A stretch of DNA of 64,000 nt from Candidatus Babeliales bacterium (GCA_963743635.1 CAVUQO010000002.1:1-64000); one strand, 5' to 3'. Counted from the first letter of the stretch, positions 1,852-56,765 are shown. Numbers and translations: made by a program. The notes: a model not told the origin generated them from the letters alone.

Positions 1852-3777
1852 ATGGAGAGAAATAAAATCATAGCAGTTGCAGTATTGGCGATTGGAATCG
1901 TTGCATGGCGCATGGGGGCGATGGAGCAAGAGTCTGGCAAAAAACGTGATGCTGGAGAGATGTCCAAGAATATAGGCGGTGCACGGTCTACCAAGAGGCA
2001 GCGACTTCAAGGTGCACACGAGGAAGATATTCCAGTAGGAATGATTAGGGTGATATTGAGTTATGACAAAGTATTGGATGTGCCTATCAATCAAGCGCGT
2101 CTATTTGATTATTTTAATGCAATGCTGAGTTCGGAGTTCAGAGAAGAGCATGTAAGGGCGGTAAATTTACCTGAAATAAGCAGTGGCCTTTTTCAAGAGC
2201 TGCTGAAAGATCTGGATTGGGTGGAGGGAGTGCGCGCTCAGCAACAAGCAAATGAGACGGAGCAACAGGCAGCAAGAAGAAGAATAGTGCAAACTATGCC
2301 AGCAGTTGCGTTTGATAGAGATGCATTAGAGGTATTAATAGCGCAATTACAAGCCGCCGATTATTTACAGCAAGCATCGTTGATAGAGCTCTATGCGCAT
2401 CAGATAGCAGATATGATCATATCTGCTGAATCAATGAGATTGTTGAGTCAAAGTGATAAGGAATACAGTGACTTCATAATAGCCTTAATAACTGCATTGC
2501 CTTCTCATTTGGCGTTGCATATTTTGAAAAGTATGCCAAGAGCAGGAATATGGCTTGAGCAGTATACGATTGCGCATGATGATGGTTTGGTTGACTCAGT
2601 AGCGATATCAGCAGATGGCAATAGGGTGGTGACGGGATCTCAAGATAGTACGGCAAAGATAGTAGCATGGAATGGCAATGCATGGATTGAGGATCATACG
2701 ATTCGGCATGCTGATATAGTTACCTCAGTAGCGATATCAGCAGATGGCAATAGGGTAGTGACGGGATCTGATGATAATACGGCAAAGATAGTTGCGTGGA
2801 ATGGTAATGCATGGGTTGAGCAAGATACGATTAGGCATGCTGGGATGGTTCATTCAGTAGCGATATCAGCAGATGGCAATAGGGTGGTGACGGGATCTCA
2901 AGATAATACGGCAAAAATAGTGGCATGGAATGGCAATGCATGGATTGAGCAGTATACGATTCCGCATAATCATTCGGTTGAATCAGTATCAATATCAGCA
3001 GATGGCAATAGGGTGGTGACGGGATCTCAAGATTACAAGGCAAAGATAGTGGTATGGAATGGCAATGCATGGATTGAGCAGCATACGATTCGGCACAATG
3101 GTGTGGTTAGATCAGTAGCGATATCAGCAGATGGCAATAAGGTGGTGACGGGATCTGGAGATGATAGAGCAAAGATAGTTGCATGGAACGGCAATGCATG
3201 GATTGAGCAGCATACGATTCGGCATACTATTGGGGTTAACTCAGTAGCGATATCAGCAGATGGCAATAGGGTGGTGACGGGATCTGATGATAATACGGCA
3301 AAGATAGTTGCATGGAATGGCAATGCATGGATTGAGCAGCATACGATTCGGGATACTATTGGTGTTAGATCAGTAGCGATATCAGCAGAGGGCAATAGGG
3401 TGGTGACGGGATCTTGGGATGGCACGGCAAGGATAGTGGTATGGAATGGCAATGCATGGGTTGAGCAGCATACGATTCCTCATAATGATTCGGTTGTATC
3501 AGTAGCGATATCAGCAGATGGCAATAGGGTGGTGACGGGATCTTGGGATGATACGGCAAAGATAGTGGGAGTGGGATTTTTGCCAACATCATTACCGGGG
3601 ATATCAGATTTTAATGCCTTGTTATTTGAACATCTATTACTGTGGGCTCGCGATAAAAAGCAGAAGATAAGTAAAATGGATTGGATTAACAATATTTTGA
3701 ATATGATTCAATGGCAAAAGCTACGGCGCGAAGATCAAGCAGAACTTCAAAAGTTAATTCGAGAAACAATGCAATAG
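1852..3777 (+). CDS. Secreted BTB/POZ-like + 8x WD40 protein (putative effector)
   Basis: Signal peptide ending MGA|ME; basic NLS-like KKR...KRQRL; BTB-like YFNAMLSSEFREE...VNLPEIS..LFQELL...LQAADYLQ..L; 8 WD40 units. Confidence 0.9.
   Translation: MERNKIIAVAVLAIGIVAWRMGAMEQESGKKRDAGEMSKNIGGARSTKRQRLQGAHEEDIPVGMIRVILSYDKVLDVPINQARLFDYFNAMLSSEFREEHVRAVNLPEISSGLFQELLKDLDWVEGVRAQQQANETEQQAARRRIVQTMPAVAFDRDALEVLIAQLQAADYLQQASLIELYAHQIADMIISAESMRLLSQSDKEYSDFIIALITALPSHLALHILKSMPRAGIWLEQYTIAHDDGLVDSVAISADGNRVVTGSQDSTAKIVAWNGNAWIEDHTIRHADIVTSVAISADGNRVVTGSDDNTAKIVAWNGNAWVEQDTIRHAGMVHSVAISADGNRVVTGSQDNTAKIVAWNGNAWIEQYTIPHNHSVESVSISADGNRVVTGSQDYKAKIVVWNGNAWIEQHTIRHNGVVRSVAISADGNKVVTGSGDDRAKIVAWNGNAWIEQHTIRHTIGVNSVAISADGNRVVTGSDDNTAKIVAWNGNAWIEQHTIRDTIGVRSVAISAEGNRVVTGSWDGTARIVVWNGNAWVEQHTIPHNDSVVSVAISADGNRVVTGSWDDTAKIVGVGFLPTSLPGISDFNALLFEHLLLWARDKKQKISKMDWINNILNMIQWQKLRREDQAELQKLIRETMQ
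2548..3570 (+). repeat. Intragenic tandem array of 8 x ~129-bp WD40 units
   Basis: Same nucleotide unit as 475-1500. Confidence 0.95.
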
Positions 3778-3790
3778 CATAATATTAGAA

Positions 3791-3845
3791 CAAAATGATA
3801 GCGGCCTCGGGAGAGATGAACTTCCCCGAGGCCGCTATCATTTTG
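3791..3845. terminator. Long hairpin, probably a bidirectional terminator
   Basis: caaaatgatagcggcctcggg...cccgaggccgctatcattttg between convergent genes. Confidence 0.75.
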
Positions 3846-3863
3846 TGATATTGCTTATTCGCC

Positions 3864-4010
3864 GTCGCTGAAAACCGCGTGCTTTAGCTCGTGGATGAAA
3901 GCGACAAGAACCACGACCGTGGTTCGACTCTGCTCTCCATGAACGGGCCCGCTGCTCCTGACCCTGAGCCTGACAAAGGGTCGAATGGGTCGAAGGATAG
4001 CGAAGGAGGG
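3864..4010. repeat. Cluster of short palindromic elements (IS200/IS605-end-like hairpin plus REP-like CCTGAGC..TCGAAGG units)
   Basis: gtcgctgaaaaccgcgtgctttagctcgtggatgaaagcgac resembles 18925-18964; accctgagcctgacaaagggtcgaatgggtcgaagg resembles the reverse complement of 49155-49195. Confidence 0.6.
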
Positions 4011-4047
4011 TTTTTCGCTATGGCGTAATTTCAGCCCGTTGATCGCT

Positions 4048-5064: not shown

Positions 5065-5175
5065 AGAGCGATCCTTCTGATAAGGTAGTTATATAATTTT
5101 GAAAAATTATGCTATCACAAGCATGTTTTTGTGTTCAATGGTAGCCTAAAGATAGTATCACAAAAAGGGTTTAAT

Positions 5176-6388
5176 ATGGCCTTATATTTTTACCAAGGCT
5201 TTTCCCGTGATGGCAAAAGGGTCAGTGGTTATCTTGATGCCCCAACGCTTCAGTCGGTCAAAGAACAGCTTATAAAACAACAAATATATCCTACCAGTAT
5301 TGCTTCTGCGCAGCAAGAAGCGCGTATTCCATGGTGGAAACGTCTTTTGGCGGGAAAAGTTACTGTCAAAGAAAAAGTCCTCTTTACCAAACAACTCGCA
5401 GTACTTTTACGCTGGCGTTCCATTACTCCAAGCGCTTGAATTATTGACCGATTATTTTGAAGGTCAATTTCACGCAATACTCATGCTCGTCAAAGATGAC
5501 GTGAAAGAAGGGCGCTCGATGGCGGAGGCGTTAGGAAAATATCCTAAAGTATTTGATACCATCTATGTTCAGTTAGTGCGTGCAGGTGAAGCGAGCGGTA
5601 AACTTGAAGTGATTTTAGAGCGGCTCACCACCTACATGGAGCGGCAAGAAGAGGTCAGAAAAAAGATATCCGGCGCGTTATTCTATCCCATTGTTCAGTT
5701 AGTGGTTGCAGTGATTGTAGTGGGCGTATTGATGATAAACGTAGTTCCTCAGATGGCAGAAAGTTTTGCTGACATGAATAAGGAACTTCCGATATCAACA
5801 GAAATCGTAGTTGGGCTTTCTAATATTTTTGTAAATTACTATCTCTCTTTGATCATAGGGATAGCCATTCTTACTGCAGGATTCTTATACTGGCGTTCGA
5901 CCAAATCAGGCAAACGCAAAATTGATGAACTCAAATTGCGCTTACCAATCATCAAATATTTTGCAAAAACAAGCGCAATTGTTCAATTTACGCAAACGCT
6001 CGGAATTTTAACCGAAGGTGGCGTGAATTTATCTGAATCACTTGATATCGTGTGTAAGATTATCGATAATCAGGTGCTTGCAGATGCATTAAATGAAGCG
6101 CGTGATAAAATAATAAAGCAAGGTAAAATAGCACAATATTTGAAACAAACAGGCATTTTCCCACCGATGGCTATTTACTTAATCAATACGGGGGAGGAAA
6201 GCGGAAAGTTGGATGTAATGCTATTAACGGTTGCTAAAAACTATGAGGATGATTTGACTGAACTTGCAGATGGCTTGACGGCGGCGATTGGGCCGATAAT
6301 GTTAATAGCCATGGGTTTGATTGTTGGATTTATTGTTATGGCGATAGCAGTGCCGATGATGCAAATGGGCGATATGGCCGAAATGTAA
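5176..6388 (+). CDS. gspF: Type II secretion/type IV pilus inner-membrane platform protein (GspF/PilC), one apparent frameshift near 5410
   Basis: MALYFYQGFSRDGKRVSG...FTKQLAVLLR joins AGVPLLQAL...AGEASGKLE...TGEESGKLD in another frame. Confidence 0.9.
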
Positions 6389-6411
6389 TTATAAACGGTA
6401 GGAGTTTTCTT

Positions 6412-6843
6412 ATGACGACGAAACAAACGATGAAAGAAGGATTTTCGCTTGTGGAAATCATGGTTGCTATCGCAATCATTGGTATGATTATGGCGGTTGC
6501 GATACCGAGTTATAATGCATATAAAGCGAAGGCAGCTAAAACGGCAACGATACAAACTTTAAGCAGTATCGTGCGCGGCATTGAAGAATTTAGAGAGGAA
6601 TCAGAAGGAGGACATCTTCCGGAAAGATTGGAAGATTTGGTTATAAAGCCATCTAATCCCGAGTTAGCAAAGAACTGGCGTTCATATCTTGGTGGAAAAA
6701 AGAGTGTACCGAAGGATGGTTGGAATAAATCAATTCAATATAAGGTAAATCCTCCTGGATCTGAAAAAGAGTATGAGCTCTATAGTCTTGGAGCACCAAA
6801 GGGTGAACAAAAGGGTGTAAGAATATATGCGGAACAAGAGTAA
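6412..6843 (+). CDS. gspG: Major pseudopilin (GspG-like)
   Basis: Prepilin motif G|FSLVEIMVAIAII; C-terminal PKDGW..IQY...YELYSLG. Confidence 0.85.
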   Translation: MTTKQTMKEGFSLVEIMVAIAIIGMIMAVAIPSYNAYKAKAAKTATIQTLSSIVRGIEEFREESEGGHLPERLEDLVIKPSNPELAKNWRSYLGGKKSVPKDGWNKSIQYKVNPPGSEKEYELYSLGAPKGEQKGVRIYAEQE

Positions 6844-7387
6844 TCGTTCCGGATTTTCGTTAATAGAAATAATGGTTGCCATTGCCGTCATTGGAATATT
6901 GGCAGCCATTGTTTCTCCGAATCTTCGCAGTCGCCAACCGGAGTATGAACGCAAGCAATTTTTGGGAAGTTTGAATTCCCTTATGCGCCTTGCGAGGCAT
7001 CAAGCGGTGGTGACGCGAAAGCTGCATCGTGTTTATTTTAATCTTCCTAAAGGCAAGGCGGGCAACGTTACGGTGCAGGTAAAGAGTGAGGGCAAAGATC
7101 AAAAAGGTGAACAGAAGTTCGCCACAATCAAGGCTCCTTATTTGCGCAACTCGATGACGTGGCCCAAAGATTTTCAAGTGACGCAATTTAAAATTGAGCG
7201 TCATGATGAAAAGGCAACGGGGGAAGATGAATTTTGGTTTTTTATAGTACCCGAAGGGCTCGCGCAAGACGTTGTTATTAATATTCTTGATAATAATAAA
7301 GCATATCGCGGCAAGCCAAAACAGATTGGATTAGTATTAAACCCTTTTGATGCGCAGTTTAAGATTTATGATAGTCACCAGAAATGA
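6827..7387 (+). CDS. Minor pseudopilin (GspH/FimT-like)
   Basis: G|FSLIEIMVAIAVIGIL; ARHQAV motif. Confidence 0.85.
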   Translation: MRNKSNRSGFSLIEIMVAIAVIGILAAIVSPNLRSRQPEYERKQFLGSLNSLMRLARHQAVVTRKLHRVYFNLPKGKAGNVTVQVKSEGKDQKGEQKFATIKAPYLRNSMTWPKDFQVTQFKIERHDEKATGEDEFWFFIVPEGLAQDVVINILDNNKAYRGKPKQIGLVLNPFDAQFKIYDSHQK

Positions 7388-7937
7388 AGCGCTAACCGGG
7401 TTAAAACCCGGTGTAACACGCAAAATTGATTTGATCCAGTCTACGCTTTTACTTCGAAGTGTTTACTCCACGAAGTGTTTAGCTTCGTCGGATTCTATTT
7501 GCTTCAATCCAAATGCTAAAGCATGTGGATCTTCGCGAAATAGAAATAGAAATGGCTTTACGCTTGGCGAAGTGCTTGTAACGATCGTTATTATTGGTCT
7601 TGTTATGACGCCGGTATTTGTCTTGGAAAGTGCTTCATATCGTTCAATTACTTCATGGTCGGAACGTCTTGATCGCTTTATGGCGGGCACGTTATTTATG
7701 ACGCAGACTGGTATTGCAAAAGAAAAAGAAGCAACGTCTGAGGCGAAAAAAACATCACAAAATCCCAAAATGGATATGCAGTATAAAATGACTGAAATGC
7801 CCAAAGAATCATCCTTAAAAAATACTAAAGATCTCTATCTCGAGCGAGTTACGCTCAAATGGCAAGCGGGTAAGAAAAAAGAAGAAGAAGTTATAGTCAT
7901 GGTGCATCACAGGCCGGACGTAAAGAAAAAAAAGTAA
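7368..7937 (+). CDS. Minor pseudopilin (GspI-like) with an extended leader containing palindromic DNA
   Basis: G|FTLGEVLVTIVII at about 7554; nearest in-frame ATG is 7368, overlapping the end of the upstream gene. Confidence 0.75.
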   Translation: MIVTRNEALTGLKPGVTRKIDLIQSTLLLRSVYSTKCLASSDSICFNPNAKACGSSRNRNRNGFTLGEVLVTIVIIGLVMTPVFVLESASYRSITSWSERLDRFMAGTLFMTQTGIAKEKEATSEAKKTSQNPKMDMQYKMTEMPKESSLKNTKDLYLERVTLKWQAGKKKEEEVIVMVHHRPDVKKKK

Positions 7938-7940
7938 AAA

Positions 7941-9089
7941 ATGAAAACAGGATTCTCGTTAATTGAAGTTATTATTGCAGCAGCGATTGCATCGATGCTC
8001 AGCGCGGTATTATTTTTATCCTGGAGCCAAATTAAGCGCATTGTGGTTCGTGCAGATAATCGGACAAGCATTTATGATCGGATGATGTTGGTGCGCAAAC
8101 AATTCGAGCATGATTTTAGCGGTATGTGCGTACCCGTCAGTCGCCCTTACTTAAAGCCTGAAAGCAAAGAAGAAGAAAAAAAACCATCATTGCAAGCATC
8201 GCTAGAACCCGCAGCGGGGGATGCAAAAAAGGATAAAAAAGAAAAACCAAAGCCCGTTGAACGTGTATTTTATGCGCAAAAGAAGGGCGATATGTTTGAA
8301 AGTTTGACCTGTCTTACCAATAATCCACTGCAAGTATACTGGAGCGAAAAAGCGGGCGAAGCGCGTCCGCGTATTGCGCGTATTCAGTATCGTCTTGAGC
8401 AGGAGCCTAAAACAGAAAAGAAACCGTCCTACACACTCTATCGTCAAGAATTTTACACGCTTGATGTTGAGCCGTTCCAAAAGGGGAATGATACGGTGCG
8501 TTCATATGTGCTCATTAGCGGCATAAAAGATCTCAAGATGACCTATTGGCAAGAATGGCAGGTGCAAAAAGAGGCCAAAGAAAGCGATACAATGAATATC
8601 GGTGATAAAGCGAATGCAAAAGAAGGCGATAAAAAAAATGATGAGCCGGTCAAAGAAATAAAAAAAGTTACCACATGGGATCTTGATAAAGAGCCTGCCC
8701 CTAAAAATACCTTTATTCGTCCCATCCCTACGATGATCGTCATAGAATTAGTGTTGTGGGATTTGGAAAGAAAGAAAACGCGCAGCTTTAATATTATGAT
8801 TCCGATTCCTATCGAAATTGAAAATCCTAAAAAGGAAAAGAAAAAAGCATCACCAGCGGCTCCCGCAGCTCCGGCACAGCCTGCGCTGCCAGCATTACCC
8901 GGATTACCCCTTAAAATGGGACCACAACAAACAGTTACCACCACCGCTGCTCCGCAACCAAAATCAATTATATCGAATCTGCATATGGTGCCGGTTCCTC
9001 AAAATGTAGTGGCAGCGCCATCCAATCAGGCAACACTGTTAAAAGATCTGCTTAAAGACGAGAAGGGAATGAATGGAAAGCATACATAA
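7941..9089 (+). CDS. Minor pseudopilin (GspJ-like) with Pro/Ala-rich tail
   Basis: MKTG|FSLIEVIIAAAI; RIQYRL...LYRQE; operon position. Confidence 0.8.
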   Translation: MKTGFSLIEVIIAAAIASMLSAVLFLSWSQIKRIVVRADNRTSIYDRMMLVRKQFEHDFSGMCVPVSRPYLKPESKEEEKKPSLQASLEPAAGDAKKDKKEKPKPVERVFYAQKKGDMFESLTCLTNNPLQVYWSEKAGEARPRIARIQYRLEQEPKTEKKPSYTLYRQEFYTLDVEPFQKGNDTVRSYVLISGIKDLKMTYWQEWQVQKEAKESDTMNIGDKANAKEGDKKNDEPVKEIKKVTTWDLDKEPAPKNTFIRPIPTMIVIELVLWDLERKKTRSFNIMIPIPIEIENPKKEKKKASPAAPAAPAQPALPALPGLPLKMGPQQTVTTTAAPQPKSIISNLHMVPVPQNVVAAPSNQATLLKDLLKDEKGMNGKHT

Positions 9090-14608: not shown

Positions 14609-14619
14609 GAGTCCCTCCT

Positions 14620-15525: not shown

Positions 15526-15757
15526 ATGGGTTCCTTTGGTAGGGCATGGAAGCATAAGATTGTGTTTATCTTAACGCAAATGAAAAAAACAACAAAAAGA
15601 TTGAATATTCATACTTATAGAGTAGTCAGGGGGGCCCTTGGCATGATATAATGGAGATATCAAATCTTATCTCGTTAACGAACCTCCCCTTGCGGCATGA
15701 TTGAACACATACTGTTGTTACGAACGCAAGGGGCATAAAATTGCCCTTCTTGTAGAT

Positions 15758-17166: not shown

Positions 17167-17312
17167 TTCTTTTTCCTCAAGTATCGAGAAATAAGCACAA
17201 ATTCATCTTCGCCCTTTAGCACATACCATTTTATGTAATAGAGTACTAACCAGGTGAAAAGACCGATTATGACTATCTCATACCAATACCAATAAAAAAA
17301 CCATGTTCTCAC
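17163..17312 (-). CDS. Small aromatic-rich single-TM protein (49 aa)
   Basis: GTG start overlaps the upstream TGA (GTGA); MRTWFFYWYWYEIVIIGLFTWLVLYYIKWYVLKGEDEFVLISRYLRKKK. Confidence 0.6.
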   Translation of the reverse strand: MRTWFFYWYWYEIVIIGLFTWLVLYYIKWYVLKGEDEFVLISRYLRKKK

Positions 17313-17848
17313 ACAGGGCCTGTCGCAACGGCGCCTGTCATGCCAACAGCTATACCAGCTGCACACGCTGCTTTATGAATAGGTATAGCAAACATTTTTT
17401 CGAGTGTTGTTGAAACTGGACCGTAACCAGGGCCTGTTAAGGCTGCAACGCCATGGATTAATCCATGACCAACTAAAGTAACCGCACCATATCCGAGGTA
17501 AGCTCCGAGCCATGCTCCGAAAGCGCCACCACCTCGTAAACGCTGTTGTATATCAATGTTATAAGTTTCATTCAACGTTTTATTCACTTTTAGGTATGCA
17601 CCTGCAGTGAGCATTTCAGCGAGCTTGCCCGTTGAAATATTTCGTAATTCGGGAGCCATTTGAGCAGCTTGCAATACATGCGCGCCATCTTGGTCTTCAA
17701 TAGTGAATGAGTTGTTTTCGTGGATTATTGAGACGTTCTCGATTGATCGAGGCAATGATAATGATTCTCTATCAATGATCATTGCGTTGCTGAGACTGAT
17801 AGTCATCAGCATAGATAAGGCAATAAAGCCTTTTTTGATTGGTAACAT
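17309..17848 (-). CDS. Secreted precursor: signal peptide + ~85-aa domain ending RLRGG + 72-aa Gly/Ala-rich hydrophobic peptide
   Basis: SNA|MII...IDIQQRLRGG|GAFGAWLGAYLGYGAV...GAVATGPV. Confidence 0.85.
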   Translation of the reverse strand: MLPIKKGFIALSMLMTISLSNAMIIDRESLSLPRSIENVSIIHENNSFTIEDQDGAHVLQAAQMAPELRNISTGKLAEMLTAGAYLKVNKTLNETYNIDIQQRLRGGGAFGAWLGAYLGYGAVTLVGHGLIHGVAALTGPGYGPVSTTLEKMFAIPIHKAACAAGIAVGMTGAVATGPV

Positions 17849-24061: not shown

Positions 24062-25150
24062 TCACAGATCAAGATGCAGGCATTGTTCTTCGGGGCCGAT
24101 TTCAGGAATAAGATCCTTTAAGGGTTTGCCAGTAACAAGGACGTGCCGTTCGCGCACTCGATTATAAAGATTATGCATTGATGGTTTGAAATCTTTGGCC
24201 TTCAAATATGGAAGCCAAAAAGCCGCATCAGCTGCCAATGTTCCATACGATGACGTTATTTTGACGTATGAATTGTCAGCGCCGAAATAGCGAGGGGCAT
24301 TGGGCAATAATTGCCATAATTCTCTCCAATATTTGAGCTGTATTTTTTCAGTGACAATAAGATTGGAATCTTTTTGCTCTACCGTGTAGGTGTATGAATC
24401 TTGAGCAGTATTGTTTTTTCTGTGTTTGATGGTCTGTGTCAACGCTATCAACTGCATTTCTGGATCTTCATCAGTATCAGGATTCCAGAAACGAATAGAT
24501 GTCGCCGGCAATACTGCATTGTTCCCATTTAACGCAATTGCCTGACTGATTGTTCGTATGAGTGTTTCTTTTTCAGTATAATTTCTGCCGAAATTCCCCA
24601 ATGCCTGAGAGCATCGCGTTGCTATGCGTGGCGTAAGTTGATCAACTATCTGCCCAGTAACGTATCCAGAAGCAATGTGCGCACCCAGTGACAGCGCTAC
24701 TTGCGCAACCGCATGCAGCGTTGATTGAGAAGATGAAGGCGAGATAGAAGGGGGTGTTTCTGGAATCAAATCATTGAGCATTTTTTTGAGTGTGTATCGT
24801 GCTGTCAGATTCGCTAAGGCCTGAGCGCCAACATAGGCGGGAAGTGTATCTGAAATCAATCCGGAATGGGTAAAGCTTCTTTCAGTTAAAGATTCTGCGG
24901 CGCCCAGCGTTAAAGCAGTTGTGCAAGGCGCATTCACTGGATCAATTAATCCGTATGATTCGAAAGTGAGGTGCAAGGCAATATTAGATGCTTGGGTGAC
25001 TAAAGCTCTTTGAGCAATGGCATACATTGGACTTTCTCTCTGCGCACGATCATCATCGTCAACCAGGTTGCTATCAGCATCCATGCCTTGTGCGGGCACC
25101 ATGAGACAAAGTGTACAAGCGAATATATAACGGAGAGTGTATGATTTCAT
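24062..25150 (-). CDS. Secreted hypothetical protein
   Basis: Signal peptide AQG|MD. Confidence 0.8.
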   Translation of the reverse strand: MKSYTLRYIFACTLCLMVPAQGMDADSNLVDDDDRAQRESPMYAIAQRALVTQASNIALHLTFESYGLIDPVNAPCTTALTLGAAESLTERSFTHSGLISDTLPAYVGAQALANLTARYTLKKMLNDLIPETPPSISPSSSQSTLHAVAQVALSLGAHIASGYVTGQIVDQLTPRIATRCSQALGNFGRNYTEKETLIRTISQAIALNGNNAVLPATSIRFWNPDTDEDPEMQLIALTQTIKHRKNNTAQDSYTYTVEQKDSNLIVTEKIQLKYWRELWQLLPNAPRYFGADNSYVKITSSYGTLAADAAFWLPYLKAKDFKPSMHNLYNRVRERHVLVTGKPLKDLIPEIGPEEQCLHLDL

Positions 25151-25723: not shown

Positions 25724-26449
25724 CTATCTGATGGCGTTGTCGGTTATCTCAAGAGAGAGTTGCAATAGAGATTTTATAGTCACTCTTTCAATCAATGGCT
25801 GCAATTGCTCGCGCTTGATGCGTTCCGCGTATTGCGTGACGGATTCATCATTGCGTCGATCGAGGAAATCTTCTTCGCGAAAAAGAGCAGGTTGCGGATC
25901 ATTTTTGCTACCATAAAATATTCTGAATTTCAGGTTAAGGTCTCTATCCTGACAAGGTTTGATGCACAACGGCCTGTTATCTGAAGTTGTAACATCGTGT
26001 GACAATATGTTCATTATTGTCCAGTCGTTTTGAGTCATCCTACTGAACAAGGTATGTATATATTGTCTCACACGCGAGTTGTAGGCGATATTTGATTCCG
26101 CATTTTGTTTTTGCGGAAGATCTTCAGTTCTGATAAGAGGTACGGGTTCGTTTCCATAATATACCCCGATTTGAGGAGTTTGATTGTTATCCGAGCCCAG
26201 TAATATACCCATGCTAACGCAATGAAATCCTAGGTGTGTTTCGAAGTATGCATATGGAGGATTATGAGCAAAGAGATCGTCCTCTATGTCTATTTGCTCG
26301 GGTAAAGGAAATAAATCTCGACGCTCATCAAGAGATTCTTCTGCGATTTGCGCATCATTGCTTGAATTCATATTGCCCATCGCCTTAATCTGCGATACTC
26401 CGCCCAGCATTAGGCCTGCGGCGATTATTGATAAAAGTTGTTTTCTCAT
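25724..26449 (-). CDS. Secreted hypothetical protein
   Basis: MRKQLLSIIAAGLMLGGVSQIKA|MG. Confidence 0.78.
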   Translation of the reverse strand: MRKQLLSIIAAGLMLGGVSQIKAMGNMNSSNDAQIAEESLDERRDLFPLPEQIDIEDDLFAHNPPYAYFETHLGFHCVSMGILLGSDNNQTPQIGVYYGNEPVPLIRTEDLPQKQNAESNIAYNSRVRQYIHTLFSRMTQNDWTIMNILSHDVTTSDNRPLCIKPCQDRDLNLKFRIFYGSKNDPQPALFREEDFLDRRNDESVTQYAERIKREQLQPLIERVTIKSLLQLSLEITDNAIR

Positions 26450-28712: not shown

Positions 28713-29609
28713 ATGAAAATAATGAAAAATGTGACGTTCTTTTTGTTAGTGGTTTCATATTCTGCATTGCATGCCATGCAAGATGATGCGCAGGAAAAGA
28801 ATAAGCAGGTTGCGCTGGTTTTCGATATTGATGATGTTCTGGTGGGTAAAGGGAAAGTGGGATATGCGGATTATGCATTACTGGTCGGCAGTGTTGCGTA
28901 TCATAATCCGAGCATTCTAAGGGCAGTCGGGCATGTGCCAGTAATAACCGAATATGCCGAGAATCTGGAAAAAACAATAAATGGTGCATCCAATATTGTG
29001 CGTGAAATGCTTTCTTATTTTAAAAAGGAAAGATACGGAGATCTTTCAAAATATGAGTCTAGGATTCTTGAGCTTTCACAAAAACCATATCCTGTCAAAG
29101 CGATGTTTGAGCATATTATACGCTTTAAAAAGGAAGGCCATCCGATTATAGCAGCGACTAATGAAGATTGGCAGCAACTTATAATCTGCATGGCAAAGTT
29201 GAAAGAGCATGGTGTAGACCTTAATATGCACGTTGATGGCATTATAACAACGCGTGTGCATCATATACCGGCCCCAGAGGGCTCTGAACCATTTTATAAA
29301 TTGTATCCACAAAATCCCGATGATAAGACGTATGTAGTCAGAAGTCTTCAAGACTATAAGCCGCGTGAAACATATTTCAAGGTGCTTGGAGCTCTTATTA
29401 AACATCTTGCGCCGATGAGCAACCAAGTTATTCATACCGATGATAAAAATGAGAACGTCCAGGCTGCAAAAAAAGCCGGGCTCGACGGGGTTTGGTTTCA
29501 GTTACCTGCCCCTACGGTGCGTGAAACGCCATCAGAAGATCTGCATCAGACGATTACTCAGTGGGTATCGGATGTTGAAGAAAAGCGTAAAGAGCCGGTT
29601 AAGAAGTAG
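28713..29609 (+). CDS. Secreted HAD-superfamily hydrolase
   Basis: Signal LHA|MQ; FDIDDV motif I; ATN; K; DD..ENVQAAKKAGL motif IV. Confidence 0.8.
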   Translation: MKIMKNVTFFLLVVSYSALHAMQDDAQEKNKQVALVFDIDDVLVGKGKVGYADYALLVGSVAYHNPSILRAVGHVPVITEYAENLEKTINGASNIVREMLSYFKKERYGDLSKYESRILELSQKPYPVKAMFEHIIRFKKEGHPIIAATNEDWQQLIICMAKLKEHGVDLNMHVDGIITTRVHHIPAPEGSEPFYKLYPQNPDDKTYVVRSLQDYKPRETYFKVLGALIKHLAPMSNQVIHTDDKNENVQAAKKAGLDGVWFQLPAPTVRETPSEDLHQTITQWVSDVEEKRKEPVKK

Positions 29610-29910: not shown

Positions 29911-30168
29911 ATGATGAAACGAATGCTATTAGGCTTGTTGTTAATGCCGTGCGCTGCTCATACGATGCAACCTGTTGAAAGGCATGAAAATGATGCATTC
30001 ATTAGCTTTAGCCGGGGCTCGATGAGGGTTCAGTACAATAAAACAAGTCATTCTTGTATATCAATTACGAAACGAGATGGCGGGTGTGATCTGATCATAG
30101 GCGATAATGCTCGTGATATCTTTATGGAACTGGAACAGGCTTATTTCAATCAAACACTCAATAGATAA
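29911..30168 (+). CDS. Small secreted hypothetical protein
   Basis: aagga RBS; signal AHT|MQ. Confidence 0.7.
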   Translation: MMKRMLLGLLLMPCAAHTMQPVERHENDAFISFSRGSMRVQYNKTSHSCISITKRDGGCDLIIGDNARDIFMELEQAYFNQTLNR

Positions 30169-33123: not shown

Positions 33124-33612
33124 ATGAACACAATGACACATCGTATAACAAAAGCATCATTCGTTTTGAGTTTACTGGTTTCTACAACAATCTACTCAAT
33201 GGATCTTAGTGACGAACTACATACAGTTCGTTCAAGACGCAATTCTAATACCGTTCCTGTCGTGCTATTGCATTCACCATATGAACCGTTTGTTGAGAGC
33301 TATACAGCGAAAGAAAAAATAGAAAACAGTTTGATTTCCTTTGCCTTGGGTGCTGGTATTGCAGCGGCTGCTAATCAAGTCGGAGTACTAAAACCGCTTA
33401 TTTCCGATGGTAAAGACGGATATGGCACTATGGGTAAATTAGCAGGATTAGCTGTGGCTAGTTCAGCAATTTGTTTTGGCCGTGTAGTTCGCGAATCTCT
33501 CGTGGGCAAAAAACCAGAGGATCCTTTGGATGTTGCACTGAATGTAGGCTCAGGTTTGGGTGGAGTATACACCTTCGTGAAAGCATTTGTTGAAAAAGAG
33601 GCAACGAAATAA
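33124..33612 (+). CDS. Secreted hydrophobic hypothetical protein
   Basis: Signal IYS|MD; Gly/Ala-rich helices. Confidence 0.75.
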   Translation: MNTMTHRITKASFVLSLLVSTTIYSMDLSDELHTVRSRRNSNTVPVVLLHSPYEPFVESYTAKEKIENSLISFALGAGIAAAANQVGVLKPLISDGKDGYGTMGKLAGLAVASSAICFGRVVRESLVGKKPEDPLDVALNVGSGLGGVYTFVKAFVEKEATK

Positions 33613-40453: not shown

Positions 40454-40861
40454 ATGAAGATGAGATGTTTGGTCCTACTTTTAACAAGCGCGGCAAGCTC
40501 AGTGTATGGCATGCAAGGTGAGCCCAAGAAGGCCTTAGAAATGTGGACTCAAAATGGTTATATCAAAGTGCCTCAGTCGGTAGTAAAAGCGTCGCCAATA
40601 TTAACTAATATTCAAAACATGGACAAGAATGATTTCTTTAGAAAGTCATTATTGAGCGACCAACAGAGGATTGTTGTTGAAAGCCTTATTAATGATCAAG
40701 AATGGATTCTGGCAGGAAGTTCGGGCAATAATGAAGATGAAAAATCTAATCCCTATAGAAGCATGGCAGACATGCATCACTATCTTGCGGTAGCAAAAAG
40801 GCTCAAGTTATGCAGGCTTTATGAGGCCTATGTAGCTATTGTGAATAACACCAAGCACTAA
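40454..40861 (+). CDS. Secreted small protein, possible Skp1/BTB-like fold
   Basis: Signal VYG|MQ; TQNGYIKVPQSVVKASPIL...YLAVAKRLKLCRLYE. Confidence 0.7.
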   Translation: MKMRCLVLLLTSAASSVYGMQGEPKKALEMWTQNGYIKVPQSVVKASPILTNIQNMDKNDFFRKSLLSDQQRIVVESLINDQEWILAGSSGNNEDEKSNPYRSMADMHHYLAVAKRLKLCRLYEAYVAIVNNTKH

Positions 40862-46675: not shown

Positions 46676-48142
46676 ATGAAACGTATATTTTTAAAAATTA
46701 TTGCCCTGATAGCCACTTTGGCTGTAGGGAATGCGCAGGCTATGGATATTTCTGGCTGGTATGCTCGGACATCGCAAGCGGTTGTTGATACCTATAATCA
46801 CTATCGATATGGCAGCGAAATATATCAAGATGCTGAAAAAAGACGCGAGGACTCAATGTGGCTTTTAGATCGGTCTTATGCCAAGATTAAAATGCAATAC
46901 TGGAATAATCAGATTACATTAGCTGATCAGGCCATTGCGATTCAGGAGCTCGATCAAAAAAGAATTGATTCATTTAATAAGAACCGTAATGGAATAGGAC
47001 TATCACCTAATGCCGTTATTACTGACGAGCAATATAGGGTCCTTACTAGAAGTAAAGCAGCATCAGAGCAGGAAATTGAGCGTTTAAAAAAAGAAAAAAG
47101 AAATGCAGAGGCGGGAAAGAAATCGTTAAAAGTAGATTTGCTAAAGAAAGATCCTGCGTTCCTTGCATTACATTTAAATGAAAATCAAAAATTATTTTCA
47201 TGGAACAACCTTAGATATACAGTTGCTGCGCAATGGGAATCACTTTTCGGATGGTTTACCACTGATATAGTCGCCTTAGCTACTCAGTATAATCAAGATA
47301 AGCTTAAGTATAACAACCACGCCCTACGCGTTGAACGAAGCTACTACAATGGACTTACTGCGGCTTATGATGAAATGCATCGAGAATTAAGCAAAAAAAT
47401 GATACATTCTCTTGCCATTTGTCATCAAATATCTCAACAATCAAAAGGTACATGTGTAGATGAGATAACACACCTCAACCAATTTTTACACAATGATGTT
47501 AGTAAGTATGCCAATAAATATGCTCAAGAGATTGATCAAGCCAAACAGAGAGTTAATGCGATTACCGCAGAGCGTGAGAAGGATATTGAAATAATAAAAA
47601 CATTAAGAGGCGATGAAGAACCGACTATTTTTGGGGATACTTTTTTGACGACTGGCGATAAAACTGCCATTGCAACTGGTTTGGCGTTGGCCGCGTGTGT
47701 TGTATATCGTCGAAATATAATAAATGCCTTTACAAGATACCTGCCAAAAAGAGGGTTTAAGGGTACTGGAAAGCAAGAATCCGAACCAAAATCGGGTAAA
47801 AAAAACCAGGAAGGATCCAATAATGAAGCGCGCCAAGAGCGTGAACGTGAGCATCAACGTCAGTCAGATGCGTTTCAGGGAGCGCAGAAACAACAGAGCA
47901 GACACAATATGAGTGCTGAGGCTGTGAGTAAACTCGATACTAATGGGTTGTATGAATTATTTGAACTAAACCCTTCCGCAAGTAGCGCGGAGATACGGGC
48001 AAATAAGGAAAGAATTCATACTTTATTTCGTGAATTGTCCAAGCAGTATCATCCAGATGTGAATAACGATGGACACGCGCATGGCGCGATGAAGAAGATC
48101 AATGGTTTTTACCAAGATCTTAAGTCAAGAATGGATAACTAA
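46676..48142 (+). CDS. Secreted coiled-coil protein with a TM segment and C-terminal J-domain
   Basis: AQA|MD; TM TAIATGLALAACVVYRR; LYELFEL...FRELSKQYHPD...MKKINGFYQDL. Confidence 0.85.
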   Translation: MKRIFLKIIALIATLAVGNAQAMDISGWYARTSQAVVDTYNHYRYGSEIYQDAEKRREDSMWLLDRSYAKIKMQYWNNQITLADQAIAIQELDQKRIDSFNKNRNGIGLSPNAVITDEQYRVLTRSKAASEQEIERLKKEKRNAEAGKKSLKVDLLKKDPAFLALHLNENQKLFSWNNLRYTVAAQWESLFGWFTTDIVALATQYNQDKLKYNNHALRVERSYYNGLTAAYDEMHRELSKKMIHSLAICHQISQQSKGTCVDEITHLNQFLHNDVSKYANKYAQEIDQAKQRVNAITAEREKDIEIIKTLRGDEEPTIFGDTFLTTGDKTAIATGLALAACVVYRRNIINAFTRYLPKRGFKGTGKQESEPKSGKKNQEGSNNEARQEREREHQRQSDAFQGAQKQQSRHNMSAEAVSKLDTNGLYELFELNPSASSAEIRANKERIHTLFRELSKQYHPDVNNDGHAHGAMKKINGFYQDLKSRMDN

Positions 48143-49441: not shown

Positions 49442-50068
49442 ATGAATAAAAATATCAAAGCGTTATCACTCGCTCTTCTACTCAGTAATGCGGTTTTAGT
49501 GACTGTGGTTACTCGTGCAGATGCGCCAAAGCAAGTAGATAGTTTCAAAAAAAGTGATGTTAGTAAGCCAGTTGATGCCATCAAAGTTGGCGTAGTATCA
49601 GCAACAGAAATTATGATGGACACTGAAATAGGCAAAAAAGCTTCAGCAGACATTGATGCAACCCGTCAAAAGTACGCACAAGAAATACAGGCTGATGCGC
49701 AAAAGATCGAGAAGAAAGATAAAGATCTTATCGCTAAAGCGCCAACCATGAGCGAATCTTCAAAGCGCACAGCATCATTGGAAATTGAAAACGACAAAAA
49801 AGCTCTTGAACTCAAGAATCAAAATTTGATGAAAGCGTTACAAGCGGATGCTCAAACTGCAATGGAAGATCTGGGCAAAAACTTTGATAAAGCGGTCACC
49901 AAAATTGCTCAAGAAACAAAAACTGATATGATTTTCGAAAAAGAATCAGGACGTATTGTTTATGCAAATCCTGAGTTGGACTTGACTAAAAACGTTAAAG
50001 TTTCAATGAACGCTGATTTTAAAGCAACGCAAGTCGCTGCAGCTAAGAAAGATAAAGCAACTGCTTAA
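49442..50068 (+). CDS. skp: OmpH/Skp family periplasmic chaperone
   Basis: Signal peptide; IKVGVVS...; long coiled coil; IVYANPELDLT. Confidence 0.8.
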   Translation: MNKNIKALSLALLLSNAVLVTVVTRADAPKQVDSFKKSDVSKPVDAIKVGVVSATEIMMDTEIGKKASADIDATRQKYAQEIQADAQKIEKKDKDLIAKAPTMSESSKRTASLEIENDKKALELKNQNLMKALQADAQTAMEDLGKNFDKAVTKIAQETKTDMIFEKESGRIVYANPELDLTKNVKVSMNADFKATQVAAAKKDKATA

Positions 50069-50725: not shown

Positions 50726-50740
50726 TTCAATGATTCACAC

Positions 50741-50778: not shown

Positions 50779-50810
50779 ACTCTAAATGTCTGTTTTACTT
50801 TACCTGATTG

Positions 50811-51003
50811 TTTTTTACCCACTCGAGAATCTCATCTTTCAAACGAGGCTCAATTTTAGGGCCGCCAGTCTTCGCTAATACTTCGAAGTGCAGCCTCAGG
50901 GAGTGTTTTGCTTCGTCGGGCAGGCTTATCATTTTTTCTCTTGATGTTTTTTTACCCACTCGAGAATCTCATCTTTCAAACGAGGCTCAATTTTAGGGCC
51001 GCC
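50811..51003 (-). repeat. Exact 56-bp duplication of the alaS 3' end (50811-50866 and 50948-51003) flanking a palindromic element
   Basis: ttttttacccactcgagaatctcatctttcaaacgaggctcaattttagggccgcc twice. Confidence 0.95.
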
Positions 51004-53548: not shown

Positions 53549-53687
53549 TGCCTGTAACCTTACGCTAAAAATGATGGCATGTGTTTAAAAATGCTCATCG
53601 AGCCGGAATAATCATTGCAGTAAAGCATACTCAGATTTTTAAGGTGAGGCAAACAGACTCAAAAAACATGAGGGGCATTAGAAAAAT

Positions 53688-54143
53688 TTAGTAGTCGAGG
53701 TATTGTTTATGAGCATAGTCAGGATTGCAGGCGTGGAAAGTGACTGGATTAGCAAACCCGGGACAGTATTCATCGTCAGCAGGCGGAGCCCACTTGACAT
53801 ATGCCTCAAGATCTTTGCGGTAGTTTTTGTTTTGAGGAGGCGTTTGCTTATTGCACTCATCTTGCGGAGTTTCGTCTGGATTTTGGATTGTAGGTGCAGC
53901 TGGTATGTTCTGTGCTGCGGTCACTGGCCATTGACTGGAGGTCTCTGGTTTAACGAGGGGTAGCGCGAGCGTCTTTGCGAATGCAACGGGTGACTCAGCG
54001 GGTGAAGTTTTTCTGCTATTTGGAAAGAAGAGTGTCCTTAATGATGCAATAGGTGAGCAATCGGGCGATTTTTTTTCCATAGCGTTGAGGTTCATTGAGA
54101 TTATTAACAGGCATGCCAGAGTAGTGTATGTAACAGATTTCAT
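53688..54143 (-). CDS. Secreted Pro/Ser/Thr-rich hypothetical protein
   Basis: LNA|ME; SP-rich. Confidence 0.75.
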   Translation of the reverse strand: MKSVTYTTLACLLIISMNLNAMEKKSPDCSPIASLRTLFFPNSRKTSPAESPVAFAKTLALPLVKPETSSQWPVTAAQNIPAAPTIQNPDETPQDECNKQTPPQNKNYRKDLEAYVKWAPPADDEYCPGFANPVTFHACNPDYAHKQYLDY

Positions 54144-54213
54144 CTGAAATCCTTTCGTATTGTAAAACGGGTATGTGGTGAATGAGTAATTAATTATAAC
54201 GGATTATAAGATT

Positions 54214-54705
54214 TTATGAATATTTTGGATCTTCACTAAAACGAACACGCATTGCAGTACGTGCGGTGCTTTCGTTGTTACCATACTTCTTATAGCGTAT
54301 CACGTCAGAATCCTCAGAATCATCTGAAGAAGAGTCGCTATCATCGTTGTTGGAGGAAGGGATTTTTTTAATGTTTACCTTGCGCGTTGATGCCGTACTC
54401 GATTCGGATGATGATGATTCGTCTGATGAAGAATCGTCAAGTGGATTATCCGCTAAATCTCTGAGGTATGCATTATAGTTGAATTTTACTCTTTTATTTG
54501 GATTTTGAGGTGATTTCAGACTAGTGGTTGCCTTTTGTGCTACAAAAAGAGGCGAAGCGATGTTTTTTGTAGGAGCAATTGGTGAAACGTTAGCCGATTC
54601 AGTTTGTTCCTGAGTGTTTTGCTTAATGGGCGCTTTCTCCATGCCGAAAGCGGTGATCGTGCTCAGCAATAGGGAAAAAAGGGGTATTAGGGTGATAAAT
54701 GGCAT
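54214..54705 (-). CDS. Secreted low-complexity Ser/Asp-rich protein with two RVxF motifs
   Basis: AFG|ME; KRVKF; RVRFS. Confidence 0.75.
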   Translation of the reverse strand: MPFITLIPLFSLLLSTITAFGMEKAPIKQNTQEQTESANVSPIAPTKNIASPLFVAQKATTSLKSPQNPNKRVKFNYNAYLRDLADNPLDDSSSDESSSSESSTASTRKVNIKKIPSSNNDDSDSSSDDSEDSDVIRYKKYGNNESTARTAMRVRFSEDPKYS

Positions 54706-54929
54706 CAATGTAACCTTTATTAAAGATAGTTTTTTATTGATATGATTATTATTTATAATATGCAAAAATGAAGATTTTCTCAACAACTTATTGAGTAATT
54801 TAGCTAAAAATGTTGGCATAATATGCTTATTGGCTATTTTTTGGATTAAGCCTTGCGCTTGGACAAGCAAAATGTGCCCAGTTTTGATAGGCGCATTGTG
54901 ATGTACTATGAAAAACGTGATGGGCGAAT

Positions 54930-55232
54930 TTAGTATCTACAGTTTTCGCCGGGATAGTAGTTCTCATGATTAATAGGAGAAGTCCATGATTGATCCTGGG
55001 ACTGTTCAGGATATTGGTGAAGGTAGTTACCACAAGGAAAGTATTCACAGTTAGCAGGAAAAGTTGGAGTGTGAGTGGGCGTGCGCAGTCCGTTTAATGC
55101 AGTGGTTACGACACCGATTGATGGGGTAATAGATTTACCAGGCGTTGAGCTTTCTGTTGGTTGTGGCTGCATAGCATGCATGTTCATCGAAGTCATGAAG
55201 ATATATGCAAGAATATATTTAATAGATTTCAT
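54930..55232 (-). CDS. Secreted Pro/Thr-rich small protein
   Basis: MHA|MQ; shares its RBS/start context with the gene starting at 54143. Confidence 0.7.
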   Translation of the reverse strand: MKSIKYILAYIFMTSMNMHAMQPQPTESSTPGKSITPSIGVVTTALNGLRTPTHTPTFPANCEYFPCGNYLHQYPEQSQDQSWTSPINHENYYPGENCRY

Positions 55233-55371
55233 CTGAAAACCCTTTCATGGAATGATTTTTGGGGGGATTTTTCTATTTATGATAGAGGGTTTTAGCGTAT
55301 ATTGCAATTTCCCTCACTATGTTTCTTAGCTTTTTGCTCTAAGATGCTTATCTTAAGTATTTTTAATGTCC

Positions 55372-56277
55372 CTATAATATATGTTTGAGTCTCTCCCAAG
55401 AATAGATTTCTCGCCTTCTTTCCTTTGCACTTGGCACATAATTCGCTTTTTGCAGATACTCCTGGAGGGCCTTTTTAGCAAAGTAATTTGCTGAGGGGCG
55501 TTGTGCTGTAATGGATCGAGCGATAGCACGGGGTAAGGTGCGTGTTTTTTCCTTTTCCCAGTAACGCATATATTCCGCGATATGTTCTTGGGTGCAGGTA
55601 GCTATCAGCTTAGAGACATTATCGGGAAGTTGATATCGTTGGTTCACCGCAGCGATGATACTTGGTGTGTAATGTGAGGAAAGGTTCCGGCTATACAGTG
55701 TTTCGTCAGAGCCCCAAATCGTGAGAAGCGATTTTATAAGCTTATATGCATCCGCATTGAGGATTTCAATAACTTCCATATCTATGGTGAGAGCTCTGAG
55801 CGTAGCCTTGTGGACCTCGCGCTCAATTTCGGAAATACAATGTTTTTTTTGTGCTTCCAATATTTGTGCGGTTTCAGGATTATTTTGCGTTAGTTTCGGT
55901 GGGGTCGGCTTTGCATCCCGTGCGGAAAGAACATCATCGTCATCATCATCATTATCATCATTATCAAGATCAAAAATGGAAGGCGCTGACTTTTTAGGTA
56001 TGGAAGGGGCAGGATAGGTCAATTTTCTTCTTTTTGCTGGCCGTTCGGATTCATTTTTTTGGGAAATTTCTTGTTGAGTAATATCCTGTTTTAGTGTGTC
56101 AGAGATTTTATTGAGTCGTTCGCCGTTCACGGTAACAACAACTTTAGGAAGTGGTGGCGGTGGTACCACTCCTTGAATAGTAGGTTTATTTGCACCCATG
56201 CCGTACATGAAAGTCGACGTTACAAGGAGGCTGAGTATGAACAGAGAACGTGAATATTTCCGCTGATTACGCATCAT
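55372..56277 (-). CDS. Secreted protein with poly-Pro, NLS-like PAKRRKL and an acidic tract
   Basis: MYG|MG; PPPPLP; RPAKRRKL; DNDDNDDDDDD. Confidence 0.8.
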   Translation of the reverse strand: MMRNQRKYSRSLFILSLLVTSTFMYGMGANKPTIQGVVPPPPLPKVVVTVNGERLNKISDTLKQDITQQEISQKNESERPAKRRKLTYPAPSIPKKSAPSIFDLDNDDNDDDDDDVLSARDAKPTPPKLTQNNPETAQILEAQKKHCISEIEREVHKATLRALTIDMEVIEILNADAYKLIKSLLTIWGSDETLYSRNLSSHYTPSIIAAVNQRYQLPDNVSKLIATCTQEHIAEYMRYWEKEKTRTLPRAIARSITAQRPSANYFAKKALQEYLQKANYVPSAKERRREIYSWERLKHIL

Positions 56278-56765
56278 TTGCCATCCTCATGTGCGGCGCC
56301 AGTTACTGCGAACCTTTCCAACATTTGGGCAAGTTCTTGATCGATCGCTTTGGCAAGTGCTTTTTCTGCCTCCAACAGCTCTGGCGTGGGTTCTTGTGGA
56401 TTTTCTTGCGATTTTTGCGAGGAAATTGTTGTATTCTGCGATACAGCGGATGTTGTGATGGCTGCACTCGGTTGTATGCGCACACATGGCTGTCGCCAGA
56501 GTTGCTCAGTAAGTTCCATGCACCTTTTATCAATAGTTGCATCTTGCGCATATTGCGTCCAGCGTGCATATGCTGCTCTCGTTTCACTTTTTTCTTCTTG
56601 AGATCTCTCCTTTATTGTTGCAATAATAAAGGCATTGCTGGGTCTTTCTTTGTTGTGGACTTTTATTTTTTGTTCTGGTGTCGATGAGGATTCGTTTTGC
56701 ATTGCATCTATGGTGCATATGCTTACTATAGAGCTGAGGACGAGAAGAGTGTAGAGCGATTTCAT
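56274..56765 (-). CDS. Secreted hypothetical protein
   Basis: IDA|MQ; ATGA overlap with the next gene. Confidence 0.75.
   Translation of the reverse strand: MKSLYTLLVLSSIVSICTIDAMQNESSSTPEQKIKVHNKERPSNAFIIATIKERSQEEKSETRAAYARWTQYAQDATIDKRCMELTEQLWRQPCVRIQPSAAITTSAVSQNTTISSQKSQENPQEPTPELLEAEKALAKAIDQELAQMLERFAVTGAAHEDGK

Follow-up and report, generated by a model that had tools for sequence, protein, structure and literature searches.

Signals that decide the fate of a secreted protein can stand directly behind its signal peptide. In bacterial lipoproteins, the residues after the +1 Cys set the destination, as in the Lol-avoidance '+2 rule' of E. coli and in the lipoprotein export signal of Bacteroidota. 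Among eukaryotic pathogens, the PEXEL motif (RxLxE/Q/D) of Plasmodium is described as a processing site that exposes an x-E/Q/D N-terminus needed for delivery to the host cell (bioRxiv 10.1101/2023.07.12.548774), and effectors of powdery mildews are reported to feature a Y/F/WxC motif in their N-terminal region (PMC2886064). Published genomes of the bacterial phylum Dependentiae are stated to encode a type II secretion system (T2SS) as the sole secretion system (PMC4378268, PMC4776705), signal-peptide-bearing ankyrins of the phylum are thought to reach the cytoplasm of the amoeba (PMC4378268), and at least one T2SS substrate is reported to arrive in the cytosol of a host (PMC5478897). The present analysis concerns a motif at the signal-peptide junction of proteins from a Candidatus Babeliales bacterium of the amoeba-parasite type, in which a Met, mostly followed by Glu, Gln, Asp or Asn, directly succeeds the predicted cleavage site. 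It was first noticed in 14 open reading frames (ORFs) with signal-peptide starts between positions 1,852 and 56,765 of a stretch of 64,000 nucleotides (GCA_963743635.1 CAVUQO010000002.1:1-64000; in the following, the window) and was found to recur in 104 proteins of the same genome. A small residue followed by Met-[Glu/Gln/Asp/Asn] is well supported as a junction motif that is conserved in a large and mainly accessory portion of the Sec secretome of Dependentiae.

With respect to the logic of the signal, PEXEL would be the nearest analogue, as in both cases a short motif stands just after the signal sequence and the new N-terminus reads x-E/Q/D in Plasmodium and, by prediction, M-E/Q/D here. 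Nevertheless, PEXEL is eukaryotic and cut by plasmepsin V rather than by a signal peptidase, and the export function is putative in the present case. The pattern RxLx[EQD], sought to a distance of about 40 residues from the signal peptide, was not enriched, being found in 4 of the 104 proteins with +1 Met (M proteins) and in 7 of 305 others (non-M proteins). The RxLR and Y/F/WxC effectors of filamentous pathogens likewise combine a short conserved motif after the signal peptide with unrelated, fast-evolving effector candidates, but their motifs lie several to tens of residues past the cleavage site and belong to eukaryotic pathogens. The lipoprotein signals are bacterial fate signals directly after the cleavage site and often acidic, which resembles the situation here, whereas they are carried by substrates of signal peptidase II (SPase II) with a lipidated Cys; +1 is a Met in the proteins described here, and a lipobox-like pattern was found in only 2 of the 104, which speaks against lipoproteins. 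Dependentiae ankyrins and Legionella T2SS substrates, host-acting proteins of amoeba-associated bacteria, share the combination of a signal peptide and a T2SS route (PMC4378268, PMC5478897), but an N-terminal motif with Met was not found described for them in the literature searched. As regards eukaryotic N-terminal rules, the residues at +2 fit the NatB class, Met-Asp/Glu/Asn/Gln, in 73 of the 104 M proteins and in 126 of 169 over six genomes, and they avoid the Met-hydrophobic type, with L, I, F, W or Y at +2 in 7 of the 169; these rules are, however, established for proteins made on host ribosomes. The word 'methionine' does not occur in the available text of the Dependentiae genome papers PMC6561590, PMC4378268 and PMC4776705, supplementary tables aside, and no description of a +1 Met motif was found in the literature searched, likewise aside from supplementary tables, which may hold cleavage sites.

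The source genome (G000; the window corresponds to G000:C2:1-64000) comprises 1.45 Mb in three contigs with 42% G+C. Its small size, the very large predicted secretome, the presence of a T2SS and the relatives of its PolA agree with a Babeliales/Dependentiae genome. Among five PolA relatives at 53-57% identity, the best one (57%) is titled Candidatus Babeliales, as is another at 53%, and the three others (54-55%) bear different labels; the 261 collection genomes of the phylum all fall within one order. Genes were predicted by a home-made codon-usage caller, which yielded 1501 genes covering 84% of the genome. Signal peptides were assigned by a heuristic that required a basic n-region, an uncharged hydrophobic core (h-core) and a best -3/-1 site, and that was blind to the residue at +1 apart from a penalty on proline there; all cleavage sites given here are predictions of this home-made -3/-1 scoring. 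Signal-like N-termini were found in 742 of the 1501 genes, about half, with some cytoplasmic enzymes caught among them, and 409 of these genes had a good -3/-1 site. The share of signal-like genes matches the 44% of coding sequences (CDS) with a signal peptide according to Phobius that are reported for a cultured Dependentiae member (PMC6561590). As a measure free of cleavage prediction, occurrences of the tripeptide [AGS]-M-[DEQN] immediately behind the h-core were counted, their expectation being drawn from the rest of the proteome. The pipeline was applied to 400 kb each of five related genomes, and 800 kb of E. coli K-12 analyzed with the same code served as control.

Met is the most frequent +1 residue in the source genome, occupying this position in 104 of the 409 signal-peptide proteins (25.4%), followed by Gly (36) and Ala (34). 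In E. coli K-12, +1 Met was found in 1 of 96 proteins (1%) and Ala was the top residue (31; Fisher p = 8e-10 for the difference in Met), in agreement with the premise of the first-pass annotation that Met is not a favoured +1 residue of signal peptidase I (SPase I). The cleavage-independent count revealed the tripeptide in 140 of the 742 signal-like N-termini compared with 7.0 expected, an enrichment of about 20-fold, and in 0 of 186 in E. coli compared with 2.1 expected. When the proteins were aligned on the end of the h-core, the Met frequency amounted to 8-9% at +4 to +6 and to about 2% further downstream. The number of 104 is an underestimate, because several proteins called non-M hold an equally plausible junction of a small residue and Met slightly downstream, e.g., LNA↓MQD or MHA↓MED (the arrow marks the predicted cleavage). 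Position -1 of the M proteins is Ala in 94 of 104 cases, and position +2 is mostly Q (25), D (24), E (16), S (8) or N (8). D, E, Q or N thus make up 70% at this position of the junction, compared with 47 of 223 (21%) at position 2 behind native starts of non-secreted genes that are supported by a Shine-Dalgarno (SD) sequence. A Kozak-like nucleotide context (GCC ATG G) was considered and rejected: the codon at -1 is GCA in 46, GCG in 32, GCC in 13 and GCT in 13 cases, and the +2 codon begins with G in 47, C in 29, A in 22 and T in 6. This spread places the signal at the level of amino acids.

The possibility that these Mets are simply internal translation starts, raised in the first-pass annotation as a refutation of its own reading, was examined by means of SD matches of at least 4 bases (at least 5 in the stricter count). 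Such matches precede 73% (52%) of the signal-peptide starts of the M proteins and 77% (41%) of the starts of the 400 best-scoring genes, compared with 7.7% (1%) of the +1 ATGs and 13.6% (2%) of 537 further ATGs inside these genes. Within the window, 12 of the 14 signal-peptide starts and 1 of the 14 junction Mets show an SD match. Moreover, the 12 bases upstream of the +1 ATGs contain no -10-like pattern of a leaderless transcript. With so few ribosome binding sites and no sign of a leaderless promoter, these codons do not behave as internal or alternative starts; the +1 Met is translated as an internal residue, and its reading as a start codon is excluded.

The motif is also carried by many proteins of independent descent. 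Clustering of the mature parts (from +4 on) by BLAST resulted in 319 clusters, 83 of them with an M protein, and 68 M proteins were singletons; after further merging on similarity of the 5' region and the signal peptide, 66 of 272 clusters still contained an M member. Pairs with unrelated mature parts and 5' similarity reach an identity of 0.6-0.8 in the signal-peptide stretch only, with a drop to about 0.3 upstream of the start as well as past the Met. Because the similarity ends at the start codon and at the Met, there is no evidence for a promoter-plus-signal-peptide cassette moving by recombination, and no such module was seen. Constraint on the Met was assessed in paralog pairs of the source genome with at most 50% identity (93 directed comparisons). 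Here, the +1 Met was retained in 82% and the -1 Ala in 85%, compared with 13-47% at the other positions from -8 to +16 and with 16% for other Mets within the first 60 mature residues. Averaged per family (10 clusters), retention likewise amounted to 0.89 at the Met compared with 0.40 at the neighbouring positions (Wilcoxon p = 0.008). A separate observation concerns a tandem array of six small paralogs at G000:C3:458341-461528 with a conserved signal peptide (MNYKTIM.CAV.G..MQ.AW[GA]), in which the +1 Met is conserved and the mature parts are unalignable.

In order to characterize the proteins that carry the Met, all 131 predicted signal-peptide proteins of an unselected 464 kb were compared with Pfam. 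The 32 M proteins of this sample gave five hits, namely WD40 twice, DnaJ, RING-IBR and Peptidase_M15. The 87 proteins without a nearby Met gave 26 hits, mostly to housekeeping families of the envelope and membrane including GH3/NagZ, OmpH/Skp, Amidase_2, SpoIID, a Legionella_OMP-type porin, M48, MscS and transporters, besides two Ank proteins and three lactonase-type propellers. The first-pass annotation had proposed to compare orphan and eukaryote-like proteins with periplasmic housekeeping proteins genome-wide, and in this genome sample the expected bias appeared: bacterial housekeeping families account for 1 of 32 M proteins and 20 of 87 non-M proteins (p = 0.013, with a grouping chosen after the hits were known), so that +1 Met is nearly absent from envelope housekeeping, and it occurs on the eukaryote-like WD40, DnaJ and RING-IBR proteins. 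The frequency of any Pfam hit (5 of 32 vs 26 of 87) did not differ significantly (p = 0.16). Searches of the source genome for BTB (PF00651) and F-box-like (PF12937) domains returned no match, and the controls gave none either.

Across the phylum, the rate of +1 Met varies. It amounts to 27 of 101 signal-peptide proteins (27%) in the genome G017, with Met-Glu in 21 of the 27, to 16 of 84 (19%) in G010 and to 8 of 70 (11%) in G009; in two genomes of other families, it is 9 of 89 (10%, G028) and 5 of 76 (7%, G058), the last value not being significant against E. coli (p = 0.09). The tripeptide was enriched 23-, 22-, 15-, 15- and 3-fold, respectively, in these five samples. The larger genomes (1.45-1.7 Mb; G000, G017 and G010) thus show 19-27% and those of about 1.2 Mb (G009, G028 and G058) 7-11%. 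Most carriers of the +1 Met are lineage-specific. The junction Met recurs with unalignable flanks in HAD-like and RBR proteins across several families of the phylum. Homologues of the HAD-like protein of the window were found in 9 of the 261 genomes, about half of them with a junction of a small residue and Met, which stands 7-13 residues ahead of the DxDD motif I. RBR ubiquitin-ligase-like proteins are widespread and multi-copy (36 of 261 genomes), and their N-terminal halves are not conserved.

The signal peptides themselves conform to the Sec type cleaved by SPase I according to the heuristic, with a mean length of 23 residues and a net charge of +2.1 in the n-region of the 104 M proteins. 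In length, hydrophobicity and charge, no difference was found between the signal peptides of M proteins and those of non-M proteins, and a distinct signal-peptide class for the M proteins was rejected on this ground. No twin-arginine (Tat) signal was detected, as none of the 104 contains S/T-R-R-x-F-L or any RR. Type IV prepilin leaders do not fit either, since a hydrophobic core lies ahead of the Met in all 14 window ORFs; the true N_methyl pseudopilins are separate genes at 6412-9089. These belong to the pseudopilus system that the first-pass annotation had placed in the window, a T2SS operon at 5300..9089 on the plus strand with a GspF-like protein (T2SSF, 7.4e-52), a GspG-like major pseudopilin (T2SSG, 7.7e-11) and three minor pseudopilins (N_methyl four times). 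This operon is the candidate outer-membrane export route. Two tandem LepB (SPase I) paralogs are encoded at G000:C3:523052-525004, both with the catalytic motifs SGSME and K-R-(V/I)-IG; the first of them contains about 40 inserted residues. In some relatives (G010, G013, G019 and G009), LepB is likewise present in tandem or duplicate copies. As a determinant of the motif the duplication was rejected, because the rate does not follow the number of copies: it is 27% in G017 with one match and 11% in G009 with two.

Within the window, all 14 ORFs named by the first-pass annotation translate as it had claimed, into a signal peptide of 18-26 residues that ends in a small residue and is directly followed by a Met encoded by ATG; the positions by which they had been named are the ATG starts of the signal peptides, and the Met codons lie 18-26 codons downstream. 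Its count of 11 junctions with M-D/E/Q was reproduced as well. Cleavage before the Met was predicted as the best site in 7 of the 14 and as an alternative site in one more. The description of the proteins as unrelated holds largely, apart from the paralogous signal peptides of the MKS... trio at 54143, 55232 and 56765. Only two of the 14 exceed the curated cut-off of a Pfam family, and ten are without a hit at E of at most 0.01.

The two annotated proteins are a WD40-repeat protein (1852..3777, plus strand; E 6.5e-49), whose signal peptide of 23 residues ends in MGA↓MEQE with the Met codon at 1921, and a protein with a C-terminal DnaJ domain (46676..48142, plus strand; E 4.4e-8; AQA↓MDIS, Met codon 46742). 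Paralogs of the WD40 protein elsewhere in the genome have MERNKIIAVAVLAIGI...GA↓M(E/Q)Q in common. The HAD-like protein (28713..29609, plus strand; LHA↓MQDD, Met codon 28776) shows a weak HAD hit below the curated cut-off. The remaining ORFs encode orphans. On the plus strand, these are a protein of 85 residues at 29911..30168 (AHT↓MQPV, Met codon 29965), the 3' end of which overlaps the polA ORF, and those at 33124..33612 (IYS↓MDLS, 33199) and 40454..40861 (VYG↓MQGE, 40511; an alternative site in the scoring). On the minus strand, orphans of 179 residues at 17309..17848 (SNA↓MIID, Met codon 17782), of 362 residues at 24062..25150 (AQG↓MDAD, 25084) and of 241 residues at 25724..26449 (IKA↓MGNM, 26380) are followed by a group consisting of 53688..54143 (151 residues; LNA↓MEKK, 54080), 54214..54705 (AFG↓MEKA, 54642; a less canonical site behind a signal peptide without basic n-region), 54930..55232 (100 residues; MHA↓MQPQ, 55172), 55372..56277 (301 residues; MYG↓MGAN, 56199) and 56274..56765 (163 residues; IDA↓MQNE, 56702). 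A homologue of the first of these minus-strand orphans in G017 has the junction VHA↓MELV. For the second, a search among 5.8 billion proteins returned the protein itself as the sole match and no orthologues. The envelope proteins of the window lack the +1 Met, as had been stated: neither Skp (OmpH; 49442..50068, plus strand) nor, on the minus strand, the NagZ-like GH3 protein (12896-14638; TFA↓IQPP) and Amidase_2 (14620-15555) has a junction Met.

Besides, some further observations were made. NLS-like basic clusters (nuclear localization signal; …AKRRKL…, …TKRQRL…) stand soon after the Met junction in the proteins at 55372-56277 (minus strand) and 1852-3777 (plus strand). Near-identical DNA to the stretch 53600-56800 is present in metagenome runs of two studies, from peat (word share 0.99) and soil (0.80), and no RNA run is among those listed for it. 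A 745-residue ORF at 21072-23309 (minus strand) contains both the N and the C domain of D-Ala-D-Ala ligase twice and hence represents a tandem-fused Ddl. A eukaryote-type Sulfotransfer_1 protein (59088-60068) and a protein of the GDP-mannose-dehydratase/epimerase type (61109-62251), both on the plus strand, have hydrophobic, signal-like N-termini. Outside the window, ribose-phosphate pyrophosphokinase (PRPP synthetase; G000:C2:400391-401431) bears an apparently good signal peptide, MKKSLSILVLALAISANAYA↓AEV, and may either be an exported enzyme of nucleotide metabolism or a false call.

A Met that is under constraint, does not serve as a start and stands exactly at the processing site suggests that selection acts on the mature N-terminus. 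The reading that we favour, tentatively, is that a mature N-terminus Met-Glu/Gln/Asp is under selection and determines what becomes of the exported protein, most likely in the cytosol of the host. The Sec signal peptide, ordinary in itself and ending in a small residue, would be cut by SPase I in such a way that Met becomes residue 1, and selection would concern the identity of this N-terminus and not initiation. Export by Sec and the T2SS, the one route to the host that has been described for the phylum, would then display a free Met-acidic or Met-amide N-terminus resembling an unprocessed eukaryotic cytosolic end of the NatB class, and the outcome could be a long-lived, possibly acetylated protein in the host cytosol. 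Ends consisting of Met-Glu/Gln/Asp/Asn are left untrimmed by Met-aminopeptidase and represent neither a type-1 or type-2 degron of the Arg/N-degron pathway nor a Met-hydrophobic degron, which is why such a protein is proposed to persist there. Cleavage at exactly the junction bond, delivery to the host and an effect on stability or processing are all presumed in this proposal. A further step, by which the two-residue Met-Glu/Gln/Asp tag resulting from cleavage would be a bacterial counterpart of the processed PEXEL N-terminus and would serve release, survival or modification in the host cytosol, is possible but rather doubtful.

Several points weigh against the favoured reading. The site predictions come from a crude scoring of the -3/-1 residues, by which 6 of the 14 sites in the window are non-canonical, with Met at -3 or with Thr, Ser or Gly at -1. 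The retention statistic is dominated by one large family, which contributes 74 of the 93 directed pairs, and across genera, the Met is common to both partners in 1 of the 5 homologous pairs of the sampled DNA whose N-termini could be aligned. Among likely effectors, 2 of 13 Ank proteins of the source genome have the Met at the best site and 2 more possibly (about 4 of 13), and of 29 RBR loci, 27 of which are signal-like, 8 have it at the best site and 10 when alternatives are included. Moreover, N-degron-type residues at +1 are found in 37% of the orphans and in 39% of the Pfam-annotated proteins, so that a general avoidance of N-degrons by orphans, which was considered as well, is not seen. 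NatB and Met-aminopeptidase act mainly on nascent chains, and their action on an imported protein is speculative. In addition, the acidic +2 residue could merely mirror the preference of Sec for a non-basic early mature region. The interpretation in the first-pass annotation, a sorting or host-mimicry signal on proteins delivered to a eukaryotic host, thus stands in part: the bias in protein class and the exclusion of a start hold, but the RBR (8-10 of 29) and Ank (about 4 of 13) counts speak against an obligatory host-delivery tag. The tag would rather be facultative and present on a subset of likely effectors.

The main rival regards the Met as the relic of a start codon. Formerly cytosolic or acquired proteins of eukaryotic, bacterial or viral origin would have gained a signal peptide by 5' extension, and the Met would have little or no present function. 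This explains the origin of the motif well: in the HAD-like family, the Met stands 7-13 residues before motif I, presumably the distance from it at which HAD proteins of the cytosol begin, young orphans and proteins with eukaryote-like domains make up most of the carriers, and the larger genomes show the higher rate (19-27% vs 7-11%). Nevertheless, it fits the data less well and is considered unlikely. A neutral relic would decay like its surroundings, but 82-89% of the comparisons between diverged paralogs show a retained Met beside decaying flanks, and its exact coincidence with the -3/-1 context is not required by a 5' extension. The +2 residues also differ from those behind native starts (D/E/Q/N in 70% vs 21%), and SD remnants are rarer than before other internal ATGs. 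Signal-peptide-less homologues were found for 25 M proteins, but only two of them align near the N-terminus and neither has its start codon at the Met; in the source genome and the five 400-kb samples, none starts at the Met. An origin by 5' extension and subsequent retention under selection is compatible with all data.

A serious alternative to a use in the host cytosol is a role on the bacterial side, although we regard it as distinctly improbable. In the periplasm or else at the inner membrane, residues +1 and +2 would be recognized by a LepB paralog, by the T2SS or during vesicle loading and would separate cargo for release from periplasmic residents, comparable to the sorting of lipoproteins by the residues behind their Cys. 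Such sorting would agree with the absence of the motif from resident envelope proteins and its frequency in accessory ones, with its position exactly at the processing site, where it is conserved like the -1 Ala, with the two tandem LepB paralogs, both of which contain the catalytic Ser and Lys motifs, and with the T2SS operon. It is at odds with a LepB copy number that does not follow the rate (one and 27% in G017, two and 11% in G009), with the indistinguishable signal peptides of M and non-M proteins and with the lack of the motif in many likely effectors. Known T2SS substrates, moreover, are recognized in the folded state and without a linear N-terminal motif.

The ATG could also serve as a second start and give rise to a cytosolic isoform without signal peptide next to the exported protein. 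All 104 junction codons are ATG and initiation is chemically possible, but SD matches precede 7.7% of them (1% for at least 5 bases), below the other internal ATGs, a match is found at just one of the 14 window Mets, and the A/T pattern of a -10 element is missing in the 12 bases upstream, which makes dual products very improbable. Least probable of all is an artefact of gene or signal-peptide calling by over-extended ORFs or misplaced sites, for which the home-made caller and predictor and the 742 signal-like genes of 1501, some cytoplasmic enzymes included, could be adduced, but against which stand the result of the same code in E. coli (1 of 96, with Ala as top +1 residue), the SD matches at the upstream starts (73% vs 77% for the best genes), the 20-fold enrichment in the cleavage-independent count and the 44% of CDS with signal peptides found by Phobius in a published member (PMC6561590).

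Dependentiae are a widespread phylum of protist parasites, and almost half of their proteome carries signal peptides. With the junction motif, this secretome would for the first time have a sequence feature by which it can be sorted into classes, as the motif marks 7-27% of the signal-peptide proteins and is nearly absent from envelope housekeeping. Annotation is concerned as well: starts or cleavage sites in these genomes may be set wrongly by gene callers and signal-peptide predictors trained on Proteobacteria, because such tools rarely meet a Met at +1. If the tag is indeed a counterpart of the processed PEXEL N-terminus, a class of effectors would be readable directly from the sequence in a phylum without type III, IV or VI secretion system. 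The motif could also be a first bacterial fate signal at positions +1/+2 of SPase I substrates.

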